From the NCBI GenBank assembly GCA_001798185.1, contig MGRM01000012.1, positions 88,120-152,119 on the forward strand: DNA of 64,000 nt, read 5' to 3'. Positions 2,865-55,911 of the stretch are shown piece after piece. Source of the DNA: Deltaproteobacteria bacterium RIFCSPHIGHO2_02_FULL_44_16 (GTDB lineage Bacteria; UBA10199; 2-02-FULL-44-16). Both the position numbers and the translations under genes were made by a program. The notes below the pieces were generated by a model. It did not search any database. It saw only the letters and a program-made list of their open reading frames with translations, and had not been told where the DNA came from. The stretch's first letter is position 1. Every line of letters begins with the position of its first letter.

Positions 2865-5744
2865 ATGCGCCAGGAACTGGTCATCCGAGGGGCCCGGATG
2901 CACAATTTAAAAAATATCGATGTGACGATTCCGAAGAATAAACTCGTGGTCATTACAGGGCTTTCCGGGTCAGGGAAGTCGTCACTTGCCTTTGACACCA
3001 TCTATGCCGAAGGCCAGCGGCGCTATGTCGAATCGGTCTCAGCCTATGCTCGCCAATTCTTGGAGCAGATGGAAAAACCCGACGTCGACTCTATCGAAGG
3101 ACTCTCCCCTGCGATTTCGATCGAACAGCGCACAAGTTCCCGAAATCCTCGCTCAACGGTCGGTACCTCTACTGAAATTTATGACTATCTCCGTGTTCTC
3201 TTTGCTCGTGCGGGTCGGCCCCATTGTTACAAATGCGGACGTGCGATTCAGGCACAAACAGTTTCACAAATGATCGATCAGATTTTAAAACTCCCTTCAG
3301 GAACAAAGATCGGAATTTTAGCTCCGATCGTACGCGGCAGAAAGGGCGAATATACGAAGGATCTTGAACGACTGGCCCGACAGGGCTTTGTACGGGCGCG
3401 CGTTGATGGCAATGTGGTGTCACTCGATCAAAAAATCACGATCGATAAAAAGAAAAAACATAACATCGATCTTTATGTCGATCGGCTCGTGATTAAAGAT
3501 GATATCACCACGCGTCTTGCCGATTCTCTTGAAACTGCTCTCGGTCAAGGCGAAGGGCTTGTGAAGATTGAACTGATAAGCAATGCTGTCATTCCCGCGA
3601 AGGCGGGAATCTCAAAAAATTCACTGGATCCCCGCTTACGCGAGGATGACAATCAAGAAATTCTTTTCTCCGCAAAACATGCGTGTGCTTATTGTGGGCT
3701 CAGTTATCCCGAAATTAATCCTCAACTCTTTTCGTTCAACAGTCCTCGTGGAGCTTGCCCAGCTTGCGAAGGTCTTGGGACGCGACTCTATTTCGATCCG
3801 AATCTCGTCATTCCCAACCACAACCTTTCACTTCGCGAAGGAGCGATTGCGCCATGGCGAACAAAAGCTTCAACAGCCTATATTAATCTCTGCGAAGCGC
3901 TCGCAAAGCATTATGGATTCGATATTCGCACGGCATTTGCCAAACTTCCTCCTCACATTCAAAATGCGATTCTTATGGGTTCGGGGGAAGAAGAAATTAC
4001 CTTTGCCTTTGAAGGGACAGAACGAGAAAAAATAAAAACACGTTTTGAAGGAATCATTCCTCAACTCGAACGACGATGGAAAGAGACAAGCTCCATGGAC
4101 ATTCGTGAAGAACTCGAATGTTTTATGAATCGTCGTCCCTGTCCTACGTGCCAAGGAACTCGTCTTCGTCCTGAAGGAAGAAGTATTCTTATTGGTGGAA
4201 AAAACATTTCACACGTCACGGCATTTTCTATTCGCGAATGCATGCGTTTTATTTCGACGCTTGACCTCACCAAAAAAGAGGCAACGATTGCGGAAAAAGT
4301 TTTAAAAGAGATTCGTGAACGTCTCGGTTTTCTGATTGATGTGGGACTTGACTATCTCACACTCGATCGCACAAGTGGAACACTTTCAGGAGGAGAAGAT
4401 CAACGCATTCGACTGGCAACGCAGATTGGATCTGCACTTACGGGTGTTCTCTATGTCCTTGATGAACCTTCGATTGGTCTTCATCAACGCGATAATGATC
4501 GTCTTCTTCAAACCATGAAACGATTACGCGATTTGGGAAATACGCTTATCGTCGTTGAACATGATCGCGACACCATGGAGCACGCTGATCATATTATTGA
4601 TCTCGGGCCTGAAGCGGGTGTGAGGGGGGGCTATGTCGTTGCCACCGGAACTCCGAGTGATATCAAACGAAATTCTAAATCGCTTACCGGACAATATCTC
4701 TCTGGAAAAAAGAAAATCGATGTTCCACGAGATCGTCGCACTTCTTTGCTGGACGAACTTATTATAAAAGGAGCACGCGAGCATAATCTCAAAAACATCG
4801 ATATTTGTATTCCCTTGGGAGTTCTTACCTGCGTCACCGGAGTCTCAGGCTCGGGAAAATCGACGCTTGTGAATGAAACCCTTTTACAAGGTCTGAAGCA
4901 AAGACTCGAACAATCCAAGGAAACCGCAGGAAAGGTAGATGACATCATTGGATGGCAGAAGCTCGATAAAGTCATTGATATCGATCAGTCTCCGATTGGC
5001 CGAACTCCTCGCTCCAATCCCGCAACCTATACGAGTATTTTTACGCATATCCGCGATCTCTTTGCAGAACTCCCTCAATCGAAAGCGCGCGGATATAAAC
5101 CAGGTCGGTTTTCTTTTAACGTCAAAGGGGGCCGATGCGAAGCGTGCGAAGGCGATGGCATCATTCGAATCGAAATGCATTTTCTCCCCGACGTGCATGT
5201 CGAGTGTGAAGTCTGCGCAGGAAAACGCTTTAATCGCGAAACACTCGAGGTTCATTATAAAGGATCTTCTATTGCAGATGTTTTAAGTATGACCGTGAAT
5301 CAAGCTTTTACTTTTTTTGAAAATATTCCGTCGATTCATCATAAACTTCAAACGCTCATCGATGTTGGCATGGGCTACATTGAGCTTGGCCAATCAGCCA
5401 CAACTCTTTCAGGCGGCGAAGCTCAGCGCATTAAGCTTTCGCGCGAACTTGCGCGACGCGCAACCGGGAGAACTCTTTATATCTTAGATGAACCAACAAC
5501 TGGTCTTCACTTTGATGATGTGCGAAAACTCCTCACTGTCCTCAACCGGCTTATCGATCAAGGAAATACTATTGTCGTCATTGAGCATAACCTTGACGTG
5601 ATCATGTCTGCTGATTACTGTATCGACTTGGGACCTGAAGGGGGAGAAAAAGGTGGCTTTCTCATCGCCACAGGAACACCTGAAGAGCTTGCTGCCCACC
5701 CTACTTCATATACCGGATTTTATTTACGAGAACTTCTTTCATGA
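2865..5744 (+). CDS. uvrA: excinuclease ABC subunit A (UvrA); carries an in-frame repeat insertion
   Basis: two ABC ATPase modules ([25 protein letters not shown]; LSGGE signature twice) and zinc-finger cysteines CxxC; start taken at [17 protein letters not shown]. Confidence 0.95.
3588..3651. repeat. family-1 double-hairpin MITE-like element, inserted in-frame inside uvrA
   Basis: GTCATTCCCGCGAAGGCGGGAATC...GGATCCCCGCTTACGCGAGGATGACA; same element as the intergenic copies; adds the peptide [21 protein letters not shown]. Confidence 0.8.
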
Positions 5745-10845: not shown

Positions 10846-10915
10846 TGTCATCCTCGCGAAAGCGGGGATCCAGTGTTTTGGATATTTCTGGATTCCCGCT
10901 TTCGCGGGAATGACA
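10846..10915. repeat. family-1 double-hairpin element, copy b (intergenic)
   Basis: TGTCATCCTCGCGAAAGCGGGGATCC...GGATTCCCGCTTTCGCGGGAATGACA. Confidence 0.8.
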
Positions 10916-30317: not shown

Positions 30318-30387
30318 GTCATTCCCGCGCAGGCGGGAATCCAGTATTGTCAGTAACTTCTGGATCCCTGCCTTCGCAGGGATGACA
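30318..30387. repeat. family-1 double-hairpin element, copy c (between convergent genes)
   Basis: GTCATTCCCGCGCAGGCGGGAATCC...GGATCCCTGCCTTCGCAGGGATGACAA. Confidence 0.8.
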
Positions 30388-30882: not shown

Positions 30883-31338
30883 GTGAAGAAGCCAAAGTTC
30901 CTGACGCGACTTGATCATATCCTTGAAACCACCTCTTCCCGCCTCGGTTTACGAAAGAAGATGAAACAATACCATCTCTGGCATCAATGGGAATCGATTG
31001 TGGGTCCCACCCTCGCTGCGAACACCGAGCCCTCCTCGTGGAGAGGTTCTCTTCTGGTGATCAAAACAAAAAACTCTTCATGGCTTCAGGAACTCTCCTT
31101 TATGAAAGCCGAGTTACTTTCCAAAATCCAAGCAGCTTCGCCTCAATATCCTATTCGCGATATTCGTTTTGAAATTGGGACGATATCGACAGGACATTCG
31201 CCAATCCAAAAAACTGCAACTTTAACTGCTGAAGAAAAAGAATTTATCGATCAAGTCACTTCAGAGCTTGTCGACACTGAACTTCGCGAAGCAGCAAAAC
31301 GAGCCATGGAAAAAGGATTTGCGAGGAAAAAGGGATAA
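30883..31338 (+). CDS. DUF721/DciA-like protein
   Basis: WESIVGPTLAANTEPSSWRGSLLVIKTKNSSWLQELSFMKAELLSKI pattern; GTG start chosen because the annotated longer ORF runs antisense through dksA. Confidence 0.45.
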   Translation: MKKPKFLTRLDHILETTSSRLGLRKKMKQYHLWHQWESIVGPTLAANTEPSSWRGSLLVIKTKNSSWLQELSFMKAELLSKIQAASPQYPIRDIRFEIGTISTGHSPIQKTATLTAEEKEFIDQVTSELVDTELREAAKRAMEKGFARKKG

Positions 31339-31348
31339 CTATTGCTCA

Positions 31349-32185
31349 TTAAAGAAAACGTGAGCCACCAGCATGCGATGGGGTCCAACCTTGACGTCGA
31401 GACAAAACGCCAACACGTTCGAAAATGCGTTCTCGAACAAGATCCTGGCCAAATCGATCCGGAAAAGAATCGCCACTTAATCTATCAACTGCATCTGTGA
31501 TTGCTTGTCGTTTTGCTGCGACTTGGCTTCGATATGGTTCTCTCAAATCATCCGCATGGGCATAGCGAAGTGCTCTCATTTCATTGGGGAATTTTTCTCC
31601 TAATATCTCCATAATTTGTTTTATTTTTTTGCCAAATTCATTTTTACCAGAAACCAACTTAAGATCCAAATTATCTGCAGCAATTGAAAAAGCACCTTTT
31701 GATGGACAAATTTCAGTTTCTTCTCCAGCGACATAATAGAAAAAGCCATCTTGTCGCATTCCCTTTTCATCTACCTCAAAACCAAAACCGGTAATTCGAA
31801 CCTGAGAAACACCAAACTGAACTAAATCCCCAATGAAAAACTGCGCTGACACCTGCGGTGACATCCCAAAAGAAACACCATAATTTTCTGCTTTGGAATC
31901 TGTTCGATCAAAAGCAAATCGCCATCGTCGAGGAAGGCTTGTCGGAAAAGAAGGAGAAAGCGATTGAAGTCGAAACTCTGTTCCATCTTTTTGTAATAAT
32001 AATGCTAAAAGCGTTACCAAAGTTGAATTACTACCATCAGGACACTTTTCTTGATAAATTCGATCACGAATTCCATCACCATTCAAATCAGGGGTTGAAA
32101 GGAGTAAACGCTCAGGATGAGCGCACCCAACCAGATTTCCGACACTTATCATTTCCTCCTTGGTATTTAGAGTTTCTAAAATCAA
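31349..32185 (-). CDS. hypothetical protein (278 aa)
   Basis: ORF only. Confidence 0.35.
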   Translation of the reverse strand: MILETLNTKEEMISVGNLVGCAHPERLLLSTPDLNGDGIRDRIYQEKCPDGSNSTLVTLLALLLQKDGTEFRLQSLSPSFPTSLPRRWRFAFDRTDSKAENYGVSFGMSPQVSAQFFIGDLVQFGVSQVRITGFGFEVDEKGMRQDGFFYYVAGEETEICPSKGAFSIAADNLDLKLVSGKNEFGKKIKQIMEILGEKFPNEMRALRYAHADDLREPYRSQVAAKRQAITDAVDRLSGDSFPDRFGQDLVRERIFERVGVLSRRQGWTPSHAGGSRFL

Positions 32186-32228
32186 TATTCCAAATAATGT
32201 CGAGAATAAATTCGATTGACTGAAAAAG

Positions 32229-32252
32229 CTTTCTAAAGCATACTTTAGAAAG
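32229..32252 (+). promoter_or_regulatory. perfect inverted-repeat operator upstream of the RHH antitoxin gene
   Basis: CTTTCTAAAG-CATA-CTTTAGAAAG, followed by AGGAGG and the ATG at 32267. Confidence 0.5.
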
Positions 32253-32266
32253 ATTTAGGAGGAAAT

Positions 32267-32485
32267 ATGTCCCGAGAAGCCTTTGCCACCAAACTACCGC
32301 CAGAACTTGTCAAAACACTTGATGAAGTGTGTGAGCGTTTTGGATTTCGCAAAAACTATATTATTGAAACTGCTCTTCGTGAAAAACTTGAAGATATTCT
32401 CGATACCCACGATCTTGATGAATCAGTCAAAGAAGCAACGGGCTTTCATTCCTGGAAAGCCCTCAAAAAAGAATTAAAATTATAA
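32267..32485 (+). CDS. ribbon-helix-helix (CopG/ParD-like) antitoxin
   Basis: 72 aa; N-terminal beta-strand/helix pattern; located directly 5' of the RelE-like gene with a 1-nt gap. Confidence 0.55.
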   Translation: MSREAFATKLPPELVKTLDEVCERFGFRKNYIIETALREKLEDILDTHDLDESVKEATGFHSWKALKKELKL

Positions 32486-32486
32486 T

Positions 32487-32741
32487 ATGCCATATCATGT
32501 TGAACTTGAGACAAAGGCACTTAAAGAATTTCGCTCTCTTCCAAAAGAGATTCAACGCAACTTTGCAGATATCATCAAAGATCTCGAACAAAATCCTCGT
32601 CCACCAGGAATAAAAAAACTTACAAACTATGAAGGTTATCGTGTACGAAGCGGTACCTATCGGCTTTTATATACTATCGAAGATAAATCTAAACTCGTTC
32701 GAATTTATCGGATTGGTCATCGAAGAGAAATTTATCGCTAA
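32487..32741 (+). CDS. RelE/ParE-family toxin
   Basis: YRLLYTIEDKSKLVRIYRIGHRREIYR C-terminus. Confidence 0.7.
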   Translation: MPYHVELETKALKEFRSLPKEIQRNFADIIKDLEQNPRPPGIKKLTNYEGYRVRSGTYRLLYTIEDKSKLVRIYRIGHRREIYR

Positions 32742-32745
32742 TCTT

Positions 32746-33384
32746 TTATTTCCCTTGAAAACACTTGATAAGATCTTCGGCAGGAATCGCTCCCTCACGA
32801 ATAATGCGCATGGACTCTTCAGCAACATCGACCACGGTCGAACCTCGAGAAGGTTCGTATTCACCGCCATCAATAATACAGGGAATTTTATTTCCAAAAT
32901 ATTTCAGCACATGTTTCGCCGTTAGTGATGGGGGATAATCTGAAGGATTCGCACTTGTCGTGGTAATAGGACGACCAAACGCACGCACAATAGCAGAGGC
33001 AATCGGATGAGAAGAGATTCGAATGCCAACTTTTCCGGTATTGGTCACATACGTTTTTGAAATAAGTTTCGACGCTGGAAAAAGAATGGTCAGTGCTCCG
33101 GGCCAAAAAGTACGAGCAAGTTTTAAGGCTTGATCAGAGACAGAAGAAGCACACTGACGGAGCATGGCGAGATCTGAAATGAGAATAGAAATGGGCAATC
33201 CCACATCGCGCGCTTTGAGTGCATAAATATTTTTGACCGCTTTCTCATTAAAAACATCAGCGCCAAGTCCGTAGATCGTTTCCGTCGGATATGCGATCAC
33301 TTGTCCATCGCGCAAAAAGGTAACAGCTTGTTCAATGAGTTCTTCTGAAGGTTGTTGAGAATCCACAGTAAGAATGGTGGTCAT
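32746..33384 (-). CDS. tsaC: L-threonylcarbamoyladenylate synthase (TsaC/YrdC)
   Basis: YPTETIYGLGAD, SANPS and VVDV... motifs of the YrdC/Sua5 domain. Confidence 0.8.
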   Translation of the reverse strand: MTTILTVDSQQPSEELIEQAVTFLRDGQVIAYPTETIYGLGADVFNEKAVKNIYALKARDVGLPISILISDLAMLRQCASSVSDQALKLARTFWPGALTILFPASKLISKTYVTNTGKVGIRISSHPIASAIVRAFGRPITTTSANPSDYPPSLTAKHVLKYFGNKIPCIIDGGEYEPSRGSTVVDVAEESMRIIREGAIPAEDLIKCFQGK

Positions 33385-33385
33385 A

Positions 33386-33886
33386 CTATCGATTGATCTC
33401 CCGATCTCGTTCTTCGATCTGATCCGCCATCTTCTTTCGAAATTGTCGTAATTTTTCTTTCAGTGGTTGATCTGAAAGCGCGAGAATTTCAGCTGCAAAA
33501 ATTCCCGCATTTTTTGCTCCTGCATTTCCAATGCACATCGAGGCAACCGGAATTCCACCAGGCATTTGTGCAGTTGAAAGAAGCGCGTCCAGTCCTTGCA
33601 GTGGAGAGGAATCAAGCGGAACACCAATAACCGGAAGAACAGTTTTTGCGGCCACCACACCGGCAAGATGAGCAGCATAGCCAGCTCCAGCGATAATCAC
33701 CCCGATGCCGCGACCTTCCGCTTCCGCAACAAGTTTAGCTACCTTGTCAGGAGTACGATGCGCTGAAGCAACGTGTTTCTCCGAAGGAATCCCAAACTCC
33801 GTCAGTATTTTTTCCGCCTCTTCCATCACCGGCAGATCACTTGCAGATCCCATGAGAATAAGCACTTGTGGTTTAGTCATAGTCAT
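33386..33886 (-). CDS. purE: N5-carboxyaminoimidazole ribonucleotide mutase
   Basis: [36 protein letters not shown] and PVIGVP motifs; start trimmed to MTMTKPQ. Confidence 0.85.
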
Positions 33887-33969
33887 CCTTTCATGAAGAC
33901 CACCGACTATTGACCATGGACCATTGACTAAAACTAAAAGGTCTATGGTCCGTGGTCCATTGTCTATGG

Positions 33970-35238
33970 TCAGCGCAGAGCGCGTTGTCCAATATCTTTT
34001 CGGTACTGACATCCGTTCCAATGAATTCCTGAAACCGCTTCATACGATTTTTGAAGAGCCACCTGCATATTTGAACCGAGCGCTGTGACCCCGAGCACGC
34101 GACCGCCATTCGTGACAATGCGGCCATCCACTTCTGCGGTCCCTGCATGAAAGACAGTGACATCCGGAAGTGAAGCAACGTTCTCGAGACCGGTGATCAC
34201 ATTTCCTCGATCTCCTTTTTCCGGATAGTCTTTAGCCGCCATAACAATGCAGACAGCAGGACGAGCATCCCATTCCAGTTCAAAACGATCGAGTCGTCGA
34301 AGCATGGCTGCTTGAATGACATCAATCACATCATTTTTCAGACGCATCAACAGTGGCTGTGCTTCAGGATCGCCAAAACGAACATTGAATTCCAGAAGCT
34401 TCGGCTCACCTTGAGCAATCATCAGACCAGCATAGAGAATGCCAGTGAATGGCGTCCCTGCCATCGCCATCCCTCGCAGTGTCGGAAGCATAATCTGCTC
34501 CATCACTTTTCGATGTACACTTGGCGTTACAATCGGAGCAGGAGAATAAGCTCCCATACCTCCCGTGTTCGGCCCGCGATCGTGATCGAGAAGTCGCTTA
34601 TGATCTTGCGATGAAGCTAAGGGGAGAACATGCATCCCATCAGCGATAGCAATAAATGAAGCCTCTTCTCCATCAAGTTTTTCTTCGATCATGACGGTGG
34701 TGCCAGCATCTCCAAATACTTTTTGCTTCATCATGAGTTCGACAGCATCCTGAGCTTCCTCTTTTGTTTCACAAACAATGACGCCCTTTCCACTTGCAAG
34801 ACCATCTGCTTTCACCACACACGGACCATCAATTTTGGAGAGAGAGTGAAGTGCACTTTTAAGATCTGTAAAAATTTCGGCCCGTGCTGTTGGGATTGCA
34901 TATTTTTGACAGAAGCGTTTTGTAAAAACCTTTGAAGCTTCAAGTTGTGCTGCAAGTTTAGTGGGACCAAAAATATGGAGTCCCCGTTTTTGAAATTCGT
35001 CTACAATGCCCAACACTAATGGTCTCTCTGGTCCTACAATGGTGAGATCAACTTTTTTCTCTGCAGCAAAGTTCACAAGTTTTTCAATATTATCAGCGGC
35101 AATATCAACACACGTTGCAAGATCAGCAATGCCAGCATTTCCCGGAGCGCAATAAATCTTTTTGATTTTGGGAGACTGCGCTAGTTTCCACACAAGCGCA
35201 TGCTCTCGTCCGCCACTGCCAATCACCAAAACTTTCAT
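33970..35238 (-). CDS. purD: phosphoribosylamine-glycine ligase
   Basis: MKVLVIGSGGREHALVWKL; ATP-grasp motifs. Confidence 0.9.
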   Translation of the reverse strand: MKVLVIGSGGREHALVWKLAQSPKIKKIYCAPGNAGIADLATCVDIAADNIEKLVNFAAEKKVDLTIVGPERPLVLGIVDEFQKRGLHIFGPTKLAAQLEASKVFTKRFCQKYAIPTARAEIFTDLKSALHSLSKIDGPCVVKADGLASGKGVIVCETKEEAQDAVELMMKQKVFGDAGTTVMIEEKLDGEEASFIAIADGMHVLPLASSQDHKRLLDHDRGPNTGGMGAYSPAPIVTPSVHRKVMEQIMLPTLRGMAMAGTPFTGILYAGLMIAQGEPKLLEFNVRFGDPEAQPLLMRLKNDVIDVIQAAMLRRLDRFELEWDARPAVCIVMAAKDYPEKGDRGNVITGLENVASLPDVTVFHAGTAEVDGRIVTNGGRVLGVTALGSNMQVALQKSYEAVSGIHWNGCQYRKDIGQRALR

Positions 35239-35248
35239 TTCTTCTCCA

Positions 35249-35671
35249 CTATGAGATATGAATTCTTTTTTGTAAATTTTTTGAAACCGCAGTAATCGCC
35301 GGAATAAAGGAATTCCTGATCAACAGATAGATCTCATAGGCTTTATCAGCAGAATAAATGTGAACAATTTCATTTCTTTTTTTTACGATAAGAGGGAAAA
35401 TTTCTTCGCTTTCTTGCGATACCAATCCGATCTTAAAAGCTTCTTTAAAACATTGAAGAGGAGTTGCTGTTTCAACCCCTTCTTCCAGGAGCAATTCTTT
35501 TAAAAGTTTCCAAAGAGTTTCATAGGTATATTCGAAACGCTTTGTGACAATTTCAATAATGATCTCTTCTTTATATTGAGCACGAAACGTATCTGAGACC
35601 GCTTCATTTAATTTTTCGAAGCTTGCTTTAAAGTCTTCAAAAGATCGCTGCAATTTTTCCCCACGTGCCAT
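35249..35671 (-). CDS. nucleotidyltransferase substrate-binding (HEPN-like, HI0074 family) protein
   Basis: 140 aa helical protein; pairs with the upstream MNT gene. Confidence 0.55.
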   Translation of the reverse strand: MARGEKLQRSFEDFKASFEKLNEAVSDTFRAQYKEEIIIEIVTKRFEYTYETLWKLLKELLLEEGVETATPLQCFKEAFKIGLVSQESEEIFPLIVKKRNEIVHIYSADKAYEIYLLIRNSFIPAITAVSKNLQKRIHIS

Positions 35672-35955
35672 ATTTCAATCTCCTTTAAGGCTTCTTTCTT
35701 GACTTTTTGGTCCACACTCGAAAAATCAACAAGATCGATTTTTTTGAGCATTGGTGTCTCTTGGTTGAGGATCTCTTCAATCTCGACAAATGCAGCTGCT
35801 GGTATTTCGCGATGTGCAAAAATTCCAATATCGATATCTGAACTTTTCAGCGCAACTTTTTTTGCCCGTGAACCAAAAAGAAAAACAATACAATCTTCTT
35901 CACGAAGCCAGTGAAAAATTGTATTAAGAATAAATGTCTTTTCAAGATCTTTCAC
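35608..35955 (-). CDS. minimal nucleotidyltransferase (MNT) domain protein
   Basis: LFGSRAKK...SDIDIGI nucleotidyltransferase motif. Confidence 0.65.
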   Translation of the reverse strand: MKDLEKTFILNTIFHWLREEDCIVFLFGSRAKKVALKSSDIDIGIFAHREIPAAAFVEIEEILNQETPMLKKIDLVDFSSVDQKVKKEALKEIEIWHVGKNCSDLLKTLKQASKN

Positions 35956-36035
35956 TCGACCACCAACATATTCACAAAACCTCCATTAAGCCACGCACAT
36001 ACGCTATTTTAAGAGTGAGGACAAGGAGGAGAATA

Positions 36036-37199
36036 TTACTCAGAAATGCGCGTTACATAAATCGGATTATGCCCACTAGACGCTCCTTTAAAACTAAGAG
36101 TTCCATCTACGCCAATGCTCGAAATCTCATAAATTTCTGGTACGCTATCCCTGCTTGTCTGACATCGAACTCTGGTTCCGGGGTATAGCCCGTTTTGCTC
36201 GATAGCCTGAAACCTTTCAGCAGTTGAAAAACCATGAGGACCATCAATCCTTCGGAATTCGAATCTATTGCGCGGAACAGGTTTTCTCTTTAAACTTTTC
36301 ATGAGCGCACAATATCGACCATATGCATGATCAACCTTCAAACGACTCTTGAATTGTTCAATCAAGTTGGAAGCAAGCTCACTTAAAGATTTACTTCCTT
36401 TTGCCATCTCGACCGTCGCACGAAGAGAACGTAATAGCGTTGGTCTTTCTTTTAAATATGCACTTCGATCAGCTTGTTCAATAAGTTCATCTGTTGCATC
36501 ATCTAGCGCTTGCGCAAGGTCATTATCTGTAGGACCAGATTGTCCAGATCCTTCTCCACCATCAACTGATGACATAAAGATGGGAACACTTCCGACAGAA
36601 ACAATGGCCGCAGTATCAATGGAGATGGCCATTCCACTTGCTGCAGCAGCTTGAACCAAAGCCCCTTGACTTCCTGGAACAAAGGCAGGCATTGGAAAAG
36701 TTTCCGCTGGAGTGAGACGCAGTGGAGTTGTTCCACTCAGCGGAGCTCCAGCAGCCGCTACATCGAAGGCAATAAAAAGACCATCACTCACTGCAGCTCC
36801 TAACTCAGATTCATTGCGAGCATTTTGCGCCATTTCTACTCGATCAGGGATTGATTTTAAAACTTCGGGAATCATTGCCATTCCCCAGACGGCATAACAG
36901 GAAATCATGGAAAAACCATACATAGGACCAAAATCAACACCAAGAGCCACAGAAACAGCATCATCACATTTCTCCCAATGAGAACGAACCCCAGTATCTC
37001 TTTCCCAAAAGGCATCGACTGTTCTGGATGAATACCCCAAACCAAATTGATACCAGTTAAAGGAGGGGCTGTAAGCATCAGAGAATTCAGCAATTGATTG
37101 AGTTGAGTTGAGTTGAGTTGAGTTGAGTTGAGTTGAAAACAGCTCTTCACTATTGAGGCAACTCGTTACTAAAGGATCACAGCGATCGATATTGGTCAT
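36036..37199 (-). CDS. hypothetical protein with a pentanucleotide repeat tract in its 5' coding region (putative phase-variable)
   Basis: 387-aa ORF; codons about 21-33 are encoded by (CTCAA)7, giving STQLNSTQLNSTQ. Confidence 0.4.
   Translation of the reverse strand: MTNIDRCDPLVTSCLNSEELFSTQLNSTQLNSTQSIAEFSDAYSPSFNWYQFGLGYSSRTVDAFWERDTGVRSHWEKCDDAVSVALGVDFGPMYGFSMISCYAVWGMAMIPEVLKSIPDRVEMAQNARNESELGAAVSDGLFIAFDVAAAGAPLSGTTPLRLTPAETFPMPAFVPGSQGALVQAAAASGMAISIDTAAIVSVGSVPIFMSSVDGGEGSGQSGPTDNDLAQALDDATDELIEQADRSAYLKERPTLLRSLRATVEMAKGSKSLSELASNLIEQFKSRLKVDHAYGRYCALMKSLKRKPVPRNRFEFRRIDGPHGFSTAERFQAIEQNGLYPGTRVRCQTSRDSVPEIYEISSIGVDGTLSFKGASSGHNPIYVTRISE
37093..37136. repeat. (TTGAG)7 pentanucleotide microsatellite
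   Basis: 7 perfect tandem TTGAG units plus partial flanking units. Confidence 0.9.
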
Positions 37200-37345
37200 A
37201 TTTTTCTCCTCTTTGAATTCACCTTATTTTCGTCAAATCAAAATATTATCGGAGTAAGAATCTTTTGGTTGCTCATAAAAGCTTTTTTAGTTTAAAAGCA
37301 AACTATCCACAAAAATAACAATCTAATTGACTTATAGTCGTTTGT

Positions 37346-37888
37346 TTGTCATTATCTAAGTGCATGAAAAAAAGCGAAATGTTACAGGCACTTAAGCTCC
37401 TAGATAGTCGACTTCCAAAAAAAGTCACGATGCTTATTGGAGGTGGATCGGCGATGCTTCTGGCTCACGATGTTCCTCTTACAACGGCAGACATTGACGG
37501 ACTTCCTCTCTCAACTGATCTGAGTCCCGCTGAACTCGACAATATTGTCAAGGACGTTGGCCAAGAATTGAAAATCGGAGGTCAATGGTACAACTCTTAT
37601 TTCAGCACCTTCACCTACTCTCTTCCCAAGGATTTTCGCGATCGACTCATCACCGTCTATAAAGGAAAAATGCTCCACGCTCTTGCTCTCGGTGCAGAAG
37701 ATATTCTCATCATGAAATGTTTTGCAGGAAGAGAAAAAGATATCGGGCACGCCAAAGCTTTGATCAAACGTGGCGCTGACACCGACCTGGTGGAACACCA
37801 GCTTGATAACCTTCAGGGAAAAGGACTTCCTGGAGCTGAAAATGCTTTGGATTTTCTACATGATTTACTCGATCAACTTGAGGTTTGA
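37346..37888 (+). CDS. hypothetical protein with a nucleotidyltransferase-fold-like motif
   Basis: LIGGGSAMLLAHDVPLTTADIDGL resembles the GS...D.D NTase signature; translationally coupled (ATGA) to the next gene. Confidence 0.35.
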   Translation: MSLSKCMKKSEMLQALKLLDSRLPKKVTMLIGGGSAMLLAHDVPLTTADIDGLPLSTDLSPAELDNIVKDVGQELKIGGQWYNSYFSTFTYSLPKDFRDRLITVYKGKMLHALALGAEDILIMKCFAGREKDIGHAKALIKRGADTDLVEHQLDNLQGKGLPGAENALDFLHDLLDQLEV

Positions 37889-38653
37889 ATGATCAAAAAA
37901 ATTCCAACTGATCGACATTTAAGCCGTCTCTATTTTGAACTTCGAAAGCATGGCGCTCATTGTATCGGCGAGAAATATCGGTGGCCATATCGGTTTCGTT
38001 CGCTTGAAGAACTTATCGCCTTAGCTTGTGATATGTCACGCTATGATCCACGCTTGATAACTATTCTGGTCAATTTCTTTATCGAACATCGGAATAAACT
38101 GAATCCAGCGCAGATTCGCTCTTTTTATTCTGCTATGAAAACAGTTCAAACAATTGCGATCATTTGCGAATTTGTACGTGATGCTGGAGATGACGAACTC
38201 AAATATTTCTGCAACTATCTTCAAGCGGGTCTCGCCCCTCTTCCCCTTCAATTCTATTTCTATCATCTTTCATCTCCAGGCGGAGCGATTGCAGAGCGCA
38301 CTCTTGAAGCATCTCTTACGCAATATAAGCGCTGGGGGTTTCTCGCGCGAGAAGCACCTCGCTTGGAGAGTGACCGTCATGCTTCTCTTGGAAAACTTGA
38401 TCTAGCTTCCCGTCGCAATATTCTCCGTCGACTTCTTGCGACTCGAAAACAAATTAAAGTTTCAGATTATCTCGAAGCAACGGGTCATATAATCTCACGA
38501 CAACAAGCTCTCCTCGATCTTTCCAATTCTTCTTTTGCAAAACTCGCAGGCAAAGGTCGCGGCAGCCATTGGATTGCCAAGAAAAATATTCTTCAAGGAT
38601 TTCTTGGCGACATGGACACGCGAAATGTTCGTGATGAAAATGATCGGTTGTGA
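37889..38653 (+). CDS. hypothetical protein (254 aa), partner of the upstream gene
   Basis: ORF only; coupled start. Confidence 0.35.
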   Translation: MIKKIPTDRHLSRLYFELRKHGAHCIGEKYRWPYRFRSLEELIALACDMSRYDPRLITILVNFFIEHRNKLNPAQIRSFYSAMKTVQTIAIICEFVRDAGDDELKYFCNYLQAGLAPLPLQFYFYHLSSPGGAIAERTLEASLTQYKRWGFLAREAPRLESDRHASLGKLDLASRRNILRRLLATRKQIKVSDYLEATGHIISRQQALLDLSNSSFAKLAGKGRGSHWIAKKNILQGFLGDMDTRNVRDENDRL

Positions 38654-38687
38654 CCAATAAGTGTCTGACACTTATTGGTCAACCACT

Positions 38688-40331
38688 CTAATGATGAAAA
38701 TGCCGTTTACCGGTGAAGACCATGGCGATATTATGTTCATTGGCAGCTTCAATGACTTCATCATCGCGAAGAGAGCCACCGGGTTGGATGATGGCTGTGA
38801 TCCCTGCTTTTGCTGCAATATCAACACCATCACGAAAAGGAAAAAAGGCATCCGACCCCAGGGACTGCGTCCCTCTTCTGGGTATTTTTTGGGAGTTCAA
38901 TTTTTTAATTGCTTGTTCAACTGCATCCACTCGACTTGTCTGGCCAGCGCCGATACCAAAGGTTTGATCTTCTGATGCAATCACAATGGCATTAGACTTC
39001 ACATGTTTACACAGTCTCCATGCAAAGTTAAGAGCTACACCCTCTTCCTGGGATGGTGAACGTTTGGTCACGATTTGATATTGATGAATGTTTTCTTCTC
39101 CCACATCTCGATCTTGAACCAGCAAACCACCTGCAACTTTGCGAAGGGTCAATCCTGGAGAAGCTCCTCGTTTTCCTAAACCCTCCACTTCCAGCAAACG
39201 AAGATTTTTTTTCTTCGACAAAAGTACTTTTGCTTCATCTGAAAACGATGGCGCCAAAATCACTTCAAAAAAAGTTTCCCCGATCGCCTCTGCAGTCGCT
39301 TTATCGAGTTCTCGACTCAGCGCCACAATACCACCAAAAGCCGAAAGCGCATCGGCATCTCGCGCTTTGCAAAATGCATCCGCGAGAGACATTGATGAAA
39401 CTGAGGCCCCGCAGGGATTTGCGTGCTTGATGATGACAGCAGCAAAAGGAGCATCATTGAAATCTTTGATCACCGAAAGAGCCGCATCAGCATCCATAAT
39501 ATTGTTGTAGGAGAGCTCTTTCCCGTGAAGTTGTCGCGCATTGAAAATGCTTGGCTCAGACAAACTGTCATTCCCGCGAAGGCGGGAATCTCCTGAGATC
39601 CCTGCTTTCGCAGGGATGACAACCATATTACTCACATCACGATAGAGCGCAGCTCTCTGATGCGGATTTTCTCCATATCTCAAGGCTTGCGCCTTTTCAT
39701 AGATAAGTCCTAGCGTTTTGGGGAAATCTGCAACCTTTTCTTCATTCTCAAATCCAGTAAGATAGTTTGCAATCGCTGCATCATACCGAGCCGTCGTTGC
39801 AAAAACTTTTTGTGCTAAACGGAACTTCGTTCCTTTCGAAAGTTCTCCCTGATTTTTTTTCATTTCTTCAAGCACCGACACATAATCAGCATGATCCACA
39901 ATAACCGCAACATCGTGATAATTCTTCGCAGCAGCGCGAAGCATGGTCGGACCACCGATATCGATATGTTCGATGGCGTGAGACAAGGAGCAACCATCAG
40001 CAACGGTTTTTTCAAAAGCATAGAGATTGACCACAACAAGATCGATCGTCTCGATCTTTTGTTCTTTCAGTTCCTGCAGATGAATTTTGTTTTGACGAAT
40101 CGCAAGCAGACCACCATGAATTTTCGGATGAAGTGTTTTCAGTCTTCCATCGAGAATTTCAGGAGAACCGGTGTAATCGGAAACATCTCTCACTACAATT
40201 CCAGCATCTCGCAAAACTTTTGCCGTTCCTCCGGTCGAAAGAATTTCAACGCCAAGCGCGGCAAGCTCTTGAGCAAAAGCAACAATGCCGGTTTTGTCGG
40301 TAACACTGATAAGAGCACGTTTGATTTTCAT
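38688..40331 (-). CDS. purH: bifunctional AICAR transformylase / IMP cyclohydrolase; carries an in-frame repeat insertion
   Basis: MGS-like N-terminal domain; YGENPHQ; ELSYNNI; AICARFT C-terminal domain. Confidence 0.9.
39557..39612. repeat. family-1 double-hairpin element inserted in-frame in the purH interdomain linker
   Basis: GTCATTCCCGCGAAGGCGGGAATCTCCTGAGATCCCTGCTTTCGCAGGGATGACAA; adds [19 protein letters not shown] between YGENPHQ..LYRDVSN and ..[12 protein letters not shown]. Confidence 0.8.
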
Positions 40332-55826: not shown

Positions 55827-55911
55827 GTCATCCCTGCGAAGGCAGGGATCCAGAAGCTTGTCCCCACGAAGGTGGGGATTTCACTGGATTCCCGCCTACG
55901 CGAGAATGACA
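55827..55911. repeat. family-1 element, copy e (three-hairpin variant) between purB and purS
   Basis: GTCATCCCTGCGAAGGCAGGGATCC...GTCCCCACGAAGGTGGGGAT...GGATTCCCGCCTACGCGAGAATGACA. Confidence 0.8.

Follow-up and report, generated by a model that had tools for sequence, protein, structure and literature searches.

Perfect tandem repeats near the 5' end of a coding sequence raise the question of whether slippage of the repeat turns the gene on and off. We addressed this question for a 387-aa orphan gene in a 64,000-nucleotide stretch of DNA from an uncultured bacterium (the whole stretch is hereafter called the window). An earlier reading made from the letters of the DNA, which we call the sequence-only reading, had proposed a phase-variable contingency locus at this gene. 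Overall, the gene is a credible candidate for a slipped-strand phase-variable locus, where we infer ON/OFF switching from the repeat, the frame logic and the allele comparisons described below.

A perfect pentanucleotide tract near the 5' end of an orphan gene

The gene and its repeat occupy the following positions.

36036..37199, minus strand: 387-aa orphan gene carrying the tract (open reading frame; no family or PDB match)
37098..37136, minus strand: perfect pentanucleotide tract (TCAAC)7+TCAA, encoding STQLNSTQLNSTQ at codons 22-34 of the 387-aa gene

On the coding (minus) strand, positions 37136 to 37098 read (TCAAC)7 TCAA, followed by TCAATTG. This is a perfect period-5 run of 39 nt, which on the plus strand appears as (TTGAG)7 plus four bases. 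The seven perfect pentamers reported near the 5' end of the gene were thus present, and the encoded peptide, earlier placed at codons 21-33, needed a shift by one codon. Tandem Repeats Finder (TRF) called the tract at 37094-37136 with a period of 5, 8.8 copies, 97% matches and a score of 79.

We then compared the tract with compositional expectation. When the window was shuffled 200 times, the longest run of period 5 had a mean length of 12.8 nt and a maximum of 17 nt, so that the perfect simple sequence repeat observed lies far above what composition predicts. A scan of the 64-kb window for units of 2-9 bases found no rival repeat, the runner-up being (AG)5. The tract also lies inside an ORF with a unit length that is not a multiple of three. 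All three of its frames encode permutations of S-T-Q-L-N, and it contains no start or stop codon in any of them.

Repeat number determines which start is connected to the protein body

The elements that govern translation across the tract are listed here.

37206..37212, minus strand: Shine-Dalgarno (SD) sequence AGAGGAG, 6 nt 5' of the ATG at 37199; anti-SD duplex -9.1 kcal/mol
37148..37150, minus strand: GTG in the +1 frame, which meets the body when the unit number n is a multiple of 3; without an SD (-3.5 kcal/mol)
36905..37150, minus strand: 81-aa out-of-frame ORF crossing the tract (ORF list and frame model)

We modelled the frame arithmetic for repeat numbers from 3 to 11. In agreement with the earlier statement that a five-base unit shifts the frame upon gain or loss, any change of one or two units was a frameshift. 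For n = 4, 7 or 10, the ATG at 37199 is connected to a body of 380-390 aa. For n = 6 or 9, the ORF from this ATG ends after approximately 35-40 codons (about 35 aa at n = 6). For n = 5, 8 or 11, the body is left without any start upstream of the tract, and the ATG enters the frame of 36905-37150, which at n = 8 yields approximately 99 aa. The ORF 36905-37150 is probably not a standalone gene. Between the tract and the conserved core, which begins at approximately residue 45 (SFNWYQFG in the alignment), there is no in-frame start codon. The first in-frame start past the tract is a TTG at codon 54, within the conserved FNWYQFGLGY motif. Since no in-frame start lies between the tract and the core, the conserved protein can no longer be translated normally after a slip of one or two units.

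The model also bears on a second start at 37150, described earlier as an upstream ATG that different repeat numbers could connect to the body. The frame linkage stood: at n = 6 or 9, the frame opened at 37150 runs into the body and gives an ORF of 374-379 aa. The codon itself is a GTG rather than an ATG, and its SD pairing falls well short of that of the ATG at 37199 (-3.5 vs -9.1 kcal/mol). These long ORFs would be the basis of a three-state switch, in which every n that is a multiple of three connects the GTG, the protein acquires an altered N-terminus, and two frames are productive. The poor start is one point against such a switch. Another is that the GTG-type N-terminus was absent among approximately 15 billion database proteins. 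Moreover, translation begun at the ATG would terminate after about 35 codons, at a point past the GTG, which does not favour coupled re-initiation. We therefore judge the three-state switch to be improbable.

Repeat number differs between near-identical assemblies

Protein look-ups favour in-frame alleles, and for this reason contigs were retrieved by exact matches to the two flanking genes, DUF6036 and HepT, so that the frame of the target gene had no influence on which contigs were recovered. A scan of metagenome contigs with exact 28-mers from the flanks returned no match. Among the 12 assemblies spanning the tract, the consensus contained seven units in 11 and four units in one. Out-of-frame consensus alleles of the TCAAC tract were found in none of these 12 assemblies and in none of the protein databases. 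The protein of the four-unit allele (P0001, 382 aa) equals the window protein minus one STQLN block and is otherwise identical. Its contig, L001 from ERZ27254845, aligned with the window over 21,149 bp with 0 mismatches and a single gap of 15 nt, which corresponds to the loss of three units. Repeat number therefore differs among near-identical genomes (7 vs 4 units), and the invariance among isolates that would have spoken against the sequence-only reading was not found, as ERZ27254845 has four units in 21 kb of otherwise unchanged sequence. Of the phase-variable locus proposed earlier, the length polymorphism was borne out; ON/OFF alternation at this tract was not observed at the consensus level, with 12 of 12 assemblies in frame.

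Across all compared loci, we counted three real variants: the tract indel and two SNPs. The first SNP, at 40305 (T>C), lies in purH. The second, at 36442 (plus strand G>T, in L096 from ERZ27254836), changes codon 253 from CCA to CAA (P253Q) and is the sole SNP inside the target gene. The tract, at 0.19% of the sequence compared, nonetheless accounts for one third of the variants (chance approximately 0.006 by our own calculation), a figure that comes from assemblies which all sample one near-clonal population and which amount effectively to one independent comparison with one variant event at the tract. The tract is locally hypermutable relative to its surroundings. It is also stable at the consensus level, as 11 of the 12 assemblies have exactly seven units.

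Could the four-unit allele be an assembly or sequencing artefact, with the tract in truth invariant? It was seen in one assembly of 12 only, and polymerase stutter during library preparation affects short tandem repeats. Against this, contig names of the k141 type suggest assembly by MEGAHIT with a final k of 141, which exceeds the tract length, so that collapse by the assembler is unlikely. At this k (read from the contig name), a tract of 24-39 nt falls together with its flanks within single k-mers or reads. Stutter, in turn, typically changes one unit at minority frequency, whereas here the consensus shows a clean change of three units. A comparable change was furthermore reproducible at a second repeat, the (TC)n tract described below, across independent assemblers and data sets including an NCBI MAG. 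An artefact is accordingly very hard to credit.

Two contigs were set aside in these comparisons. L002, considered as a diverged seven-unit strain with 20 SNPs, was rejected because its differences are scaffold-gap Ns. L101, a Logan contig that begins inside the tract, was not counted as heterogeneity, k-mer breakage being expected there: we assume that Logan assembly uses k = 31, at which the 39-nt period-5 run would break. As for its source, the population may come from the Rifle aquifer, to judge from the OGQ accessions and from the sample names ANAN16-1 and SAMN038424xx. UvrA, used as a taxonomic marker, reached only approximately 66% identity to Geobacteraceae and Desulfuromonadales MAGs, and thus the genome set holds no close representative of the species.

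A second repeat locus shifts its reading frame between samples

The left edge of the window was extended via the gene at 63-1190; for a rightward extension, a look-up of the last ORF of the window gave no match. In the leftward extension, approximately 1.5 kb outside the window, a (GA)n/(TC)n tract came to light within the 5' end of another minus-strand gene that is also an orphan. Its coordinates are given on the retrieved sequences L110 and L111, where window base 1 corresponds to L111 9939.

L110 4000-4023 and L111 8404-8423: (TC)n tract
L111 7209-8477, minus strand: second orphan gene, 422 aa, with the tract about 18 codons in

The coding strand of this locus comprises, in order, AAGGAGacaaaccATG, 17 codons and CCGAC(TC)nATCTGAAC. 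With (TC)10, present in two samples (ERZ4903125 and JGI 3300025311), an SD-preceded ATG opens the 422-aa ORF. With (TC)12, present in ERZ28563625, ERZ28563641, SRR2090161 and the NCBI MAG GCA_001799065.1, the ORF from this ATG is cut to 27 aa, and gene callers revert to an SD-less TTG start, which yields a 411-aa call. Apart from the 4-nt indel, an alignment of 8,128 bp around the two alleles contained 0 mismatches. Some samples are dominated by the in-frame allele at this locus and others by the out-of-frame allele. Repeats in this organism thus shift reading frames in nature, and the ON/OFF frame polymorphism that we observed was confined to the (TC)n tract. With two loci within approximately 84 kb, the genome contains several repeat loci, as a phasome does. 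Several contigs were also seen to end near the (TC)n tract.

The 422-aa protein had no Pfam match, and its gene adjoins an AbiEii/DUF6922 pair. A Gly/Ala-rich hydrophobic core is common to the 422-aa and 387-aa proteins. Homology between the two was examined and rejected (BLASTP E = 0.66; hhalign probability 0.15%).

The tract gene encodes an orphan protein with few and distant relatives

The 387-aa protein begins with an acidic, non-conserved extension (residues 1-44), continues with a moderately hydrophobic Gly/Ala-rich core (approximately residues 45-215), and ends with a charged helical region that runs into a small beta-rich C-terminal domain (approximately residues 216-387). Searches against Pfam, NCBIfam, PADLOC, PHROGs and PDB sequences gave zero family matches. 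Among 5.8 billion clustered proteins, a single cluster matched, and its two members were the 387-aa and 382-aa forms. The 387-aa form is deposited at NCBI as OGQ22472.1 and OGQ44992.1, hypothetical proteins of 'Deltaproteobacteria bacterium' MAGs. When 1.84 billion representatives were searched exhaustively with HMMER, only three weak relatives emerged (P0002, P0004 and P0005); a profile search after it found no further relatives, and protein-guided scans of genome and metagenome contigs for relatives of the gene were empty. P0003, a further candidate, was rejected as a spurious low-complexity match to SATQLNATS repeats.

The relatives differ in their domain content. P0002, found at E = 2e-6, has the hydrophobic N-terminal module in common with the target protein, and two XRE-type HTH domains lie at its C-terminal end. 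P0004, with 388 aa, is collinear with the 387-aa protein, while P0005 corresponds to the C-terminal domain alone. The P0002 gene (L087 3508-4752, Logan SRR22387811) lies two genes from an MNT/HEPN pair. Taken with the target protein, P0002 suggests a modular family that is tied to toxin-antitoxin islets. The same P0002 gene sits within a housekeeping cluster for molybdenum cofactor biosynthesis.

No signal peptide was found in the 387-aa protein, whose acidic N-terminus lacks a hydrophobic h-region. Its hydrophobic segments are borderline, with a maximum Kyte-Doolittle value of 1.69. AlphaFold2 models were of low confidence, with a mean pLDDT of 42 for the full protein and 59 for the C-terminal half. 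Foldseek hits in the PDB reached an E-value of 0.2 at best and comprised only generic SH3/Tudor/KOW-like barrels, from which no function could be assigned. We tentatively picture a membrane-associated Gly/Ala-rich core, followed by a charged helical region and a small beta-barrel.

The tract gene lies in an islet beside toxin-antitoxin modules

The tract gene is located within an islet of approximately 3.4 kb, bounded by purH (38688-40331) on one side and purD (33970-35238) on the other. Its neighbours in the islet are as follows.

35249-35671, minus strand: HepT/NTase_sub_bind HEPN protein (Pfam)
35608-35955, minus strand: MNT-like nucleotidyltransferase (Pfam)
37346/37364-37888, plus strand: DUF6036 nucleotidyltransferase, divergent from the tract gene (Pfam)
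37889-38653, plus strand: 254-aa protein without family match, which pairs with the DUF6036 gene on the other flank of the islet

The MNT/HepT pair (35249-35955, minus strand) lies immediately 3' of the tract gene. These Pfam matches (MNT/HepT and DUF6036) agree with the earlier description of an accessory islet adjoining toxin-antitoxin modules.

Two further observations concern these modules. The MNT-like ORF (115 aa) starts with GTG and overlaps the downstream HepT gene by 64 nt, and public gene calls on the same DNA leave it out entirely; the MNT antitoxin gene may be mis-started or decaying. Besides, toxin-antitoxin-like modules are unusually dense among the housekeeping operons of this genome (window approximately 31300-38700, L001 and L110). 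They include MNT/HepT, DUF6036 with its 254-aa partner, and a ParE with a 72-aa partner adjoining tsaC. Further ones are a PhdYeFM/ParE module downstream of uvrA/apbE and AbiEii/DUF6922 to the left of the window, and a DUF6036-like gene also adjoins pgi.

The window also carries a palindromic element with the core ATTCCCGCCTTCGCGGGAATGAC, approximately 55 nt in full and with two hairpins, which occurs in five copies against 0 expected.

3588-3610, 10892-10914, 30318-30340, 39567-39589 and 55888-55910: copies of the palindromic element

Two of the copies lie in frame inside the conserved housekeeping genes uvrA and purH. The peptide encoded by the uvrA copy has 21 residues and is missing from a Geobacter homolog; that of the purH copy has 19 residues. 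These palindromes recall the Rickettsia palindromic elements, which also insert into coding sequences.

A proposed translational switch or an incidental repeat

How might the tract act on its gene? In the mechanism that we propose, (TCAAC)n would gain and lose units through slipped-strand mispairing in replication. Because the tract separates the sole SD-equipped start (ATG 37199) from the conserved body (from approximately residue 45), the gain or loss of any number of units not divisible by three halts translation of the body. The result would be a stochastic and reversible translational switch of the contingency-locus type, controlling an orphan protein, probably associated with the membrane, in an islet rich in toxin-antitoxin genes. 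If the ON frame were favoured in the aquifer population, consensus assemblies would contain only n = 7 and n = 4. We give a probability of roughly 0.55 to this reading, in which slipped-strand mispairing is concentrated at the TCAAC tract, the tract switches translation ON and OFF, and the ON state is the favoured one in the population sampled. From it we infer that OFF variants would arise at the TCAAC locus, that they would be reversible, and that switching would have adaptive value.

The single 7-to-4 variant keeps the frame, and it is equally consistent with purifying selection on a needed protein. A different reading follows this line: the tract is mutable but incidental and sits in a dispensable N-terminal extension, the gene is needed constitutively, frameshift nulls are purged, and in-frame length variants persist. 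Neither allele disrupts the frame, and the unit number is the same in 11 of the 12 assemblies. Residues 1-44 are missing from P0002, and the repeat is absent from all three distant homologs (P0002, P0004 and P0005), which makes the tract a recent feature of the lineage. Moreover, as every frame of the tract encodes a permutation of STQLN, drift in its length would be harmless to the protein. On the other hand, the repeat is perfect at the DNA level without synonymous decay, which points to recent slippage rather than to selection on the protein. Slips of one or two units must outnumber three-unit events, so OFF cells must arise. The (TC)n sister locus, in addition, reaches an OFF consensus; nulls are tolerated there and may even be selected for. 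We regard the incidental tract as a substantial possibility, though not a probable one.

The translational switch at the TCAAC tract may also be one part of a wider system. We can imagine a phasome of lineage-specific orphan genes, with Gly/Ala-rich membrane-associated products, each placed beside a nucleotidyltransferase-type toxin-antitoxin module and switched by a 5' repeat, which would serve bet-hedging, for example against groundwater phage or predators. This extension is speculative, and we hold it to be rather unlikely as it stands. If it were true, public series of metagenomes from one clonal population would show the switching directly.

Significance

To our knowledge, nearly all characterised cases of repeat-driven phase variation come from host-adapted pathogens. 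In the present case, a free-living organism shows localised hypermutation in a simple, testable form, visible in public metagenomes, where two repeat-bearing orphan genes differ between samples amid tens of identical kilobases. In a recent review of phase variation, environmental bacteria are explicitly listed among the gaps in knowledge (PMC11868660). Both the 387-aa and the 422-aa protein seem to be dispensable under some conditions, with selection on them fluctuating, and the repeat variation offers a first functional handle on two proteins without known relatives. In terms of approach, retrieval of contigs through flanking genes exposes repeat alleles that are overlooked by protein-based searches.

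Comparison with known phase-variable systems

The opa tract of Neisseria is located in the signal-peptide coding region. As in opa with its (CTCTT)n, the pentamer of the present gene lies in the 5' coding region past the start, and the number of units sets the frame. Its seven units are within the range in which opa tracts mutate readily, tracts of 6-8 units showing 0.09 changes per month of carriage (PMC7157529). Unlike opa, the target protein has neither an Opacity-family (Pfam) match nor a signal peptide, and its unit is TCAAC; the gene therefore does not belong to the Opa family, which is defined by an Opacity beta-barrel and CTCTT units in the signal-peptide coding region. The settings differ too, since opa genes are multicopy adhesins of a host-restricted pathogen, whereas the present gene is a single-copy gene of a free-living, uncultured aquifer bacterium. 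A further difference from opa is that OFF alleles of the TCAAC tract are absent from the 12 consensus assemblies. The analogy with opa drawn by the sequence-only reading thus holds for the mechanism but does not extend to the protein family.

Pentanucleotide tracts are also found in mod genes, where GCACA[n] tracts switch expression by frameshift in environmental as well as pathogenic bacteria (PMC5909438). Like these Type III mod phasevarions, the present gene has a pentanucleotide repeat in its ORF, and it is also set in a toxin-antitoxin or defence-like neighbourhood. Unlike mod, it has a different repeat unit and is not a methyltransferase gene, with no match in Pfam, NCBIfam or PADLOC.

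A third comparison is with the tetranucleotide loci of H. influenzae (lic1A, lgtC and mod, among others). The general framework for contingency loci is laid out in PMC11868660. In H. influenzae contingency loci, ON alleles typically differ by multiples of three units. The resemblance lies in the presence of several 5' coding repeats per genome and in repeat numbers that vary against a conserved background. Unlike in H. influenzae, the two loci were found in approximately 84 kb examined, and the organism is not host associated. Overall, the tract gene belongs to none of the protein families of these systems, but its proposed mechanism is the known one of opa, mod and the H. influenzae loci.
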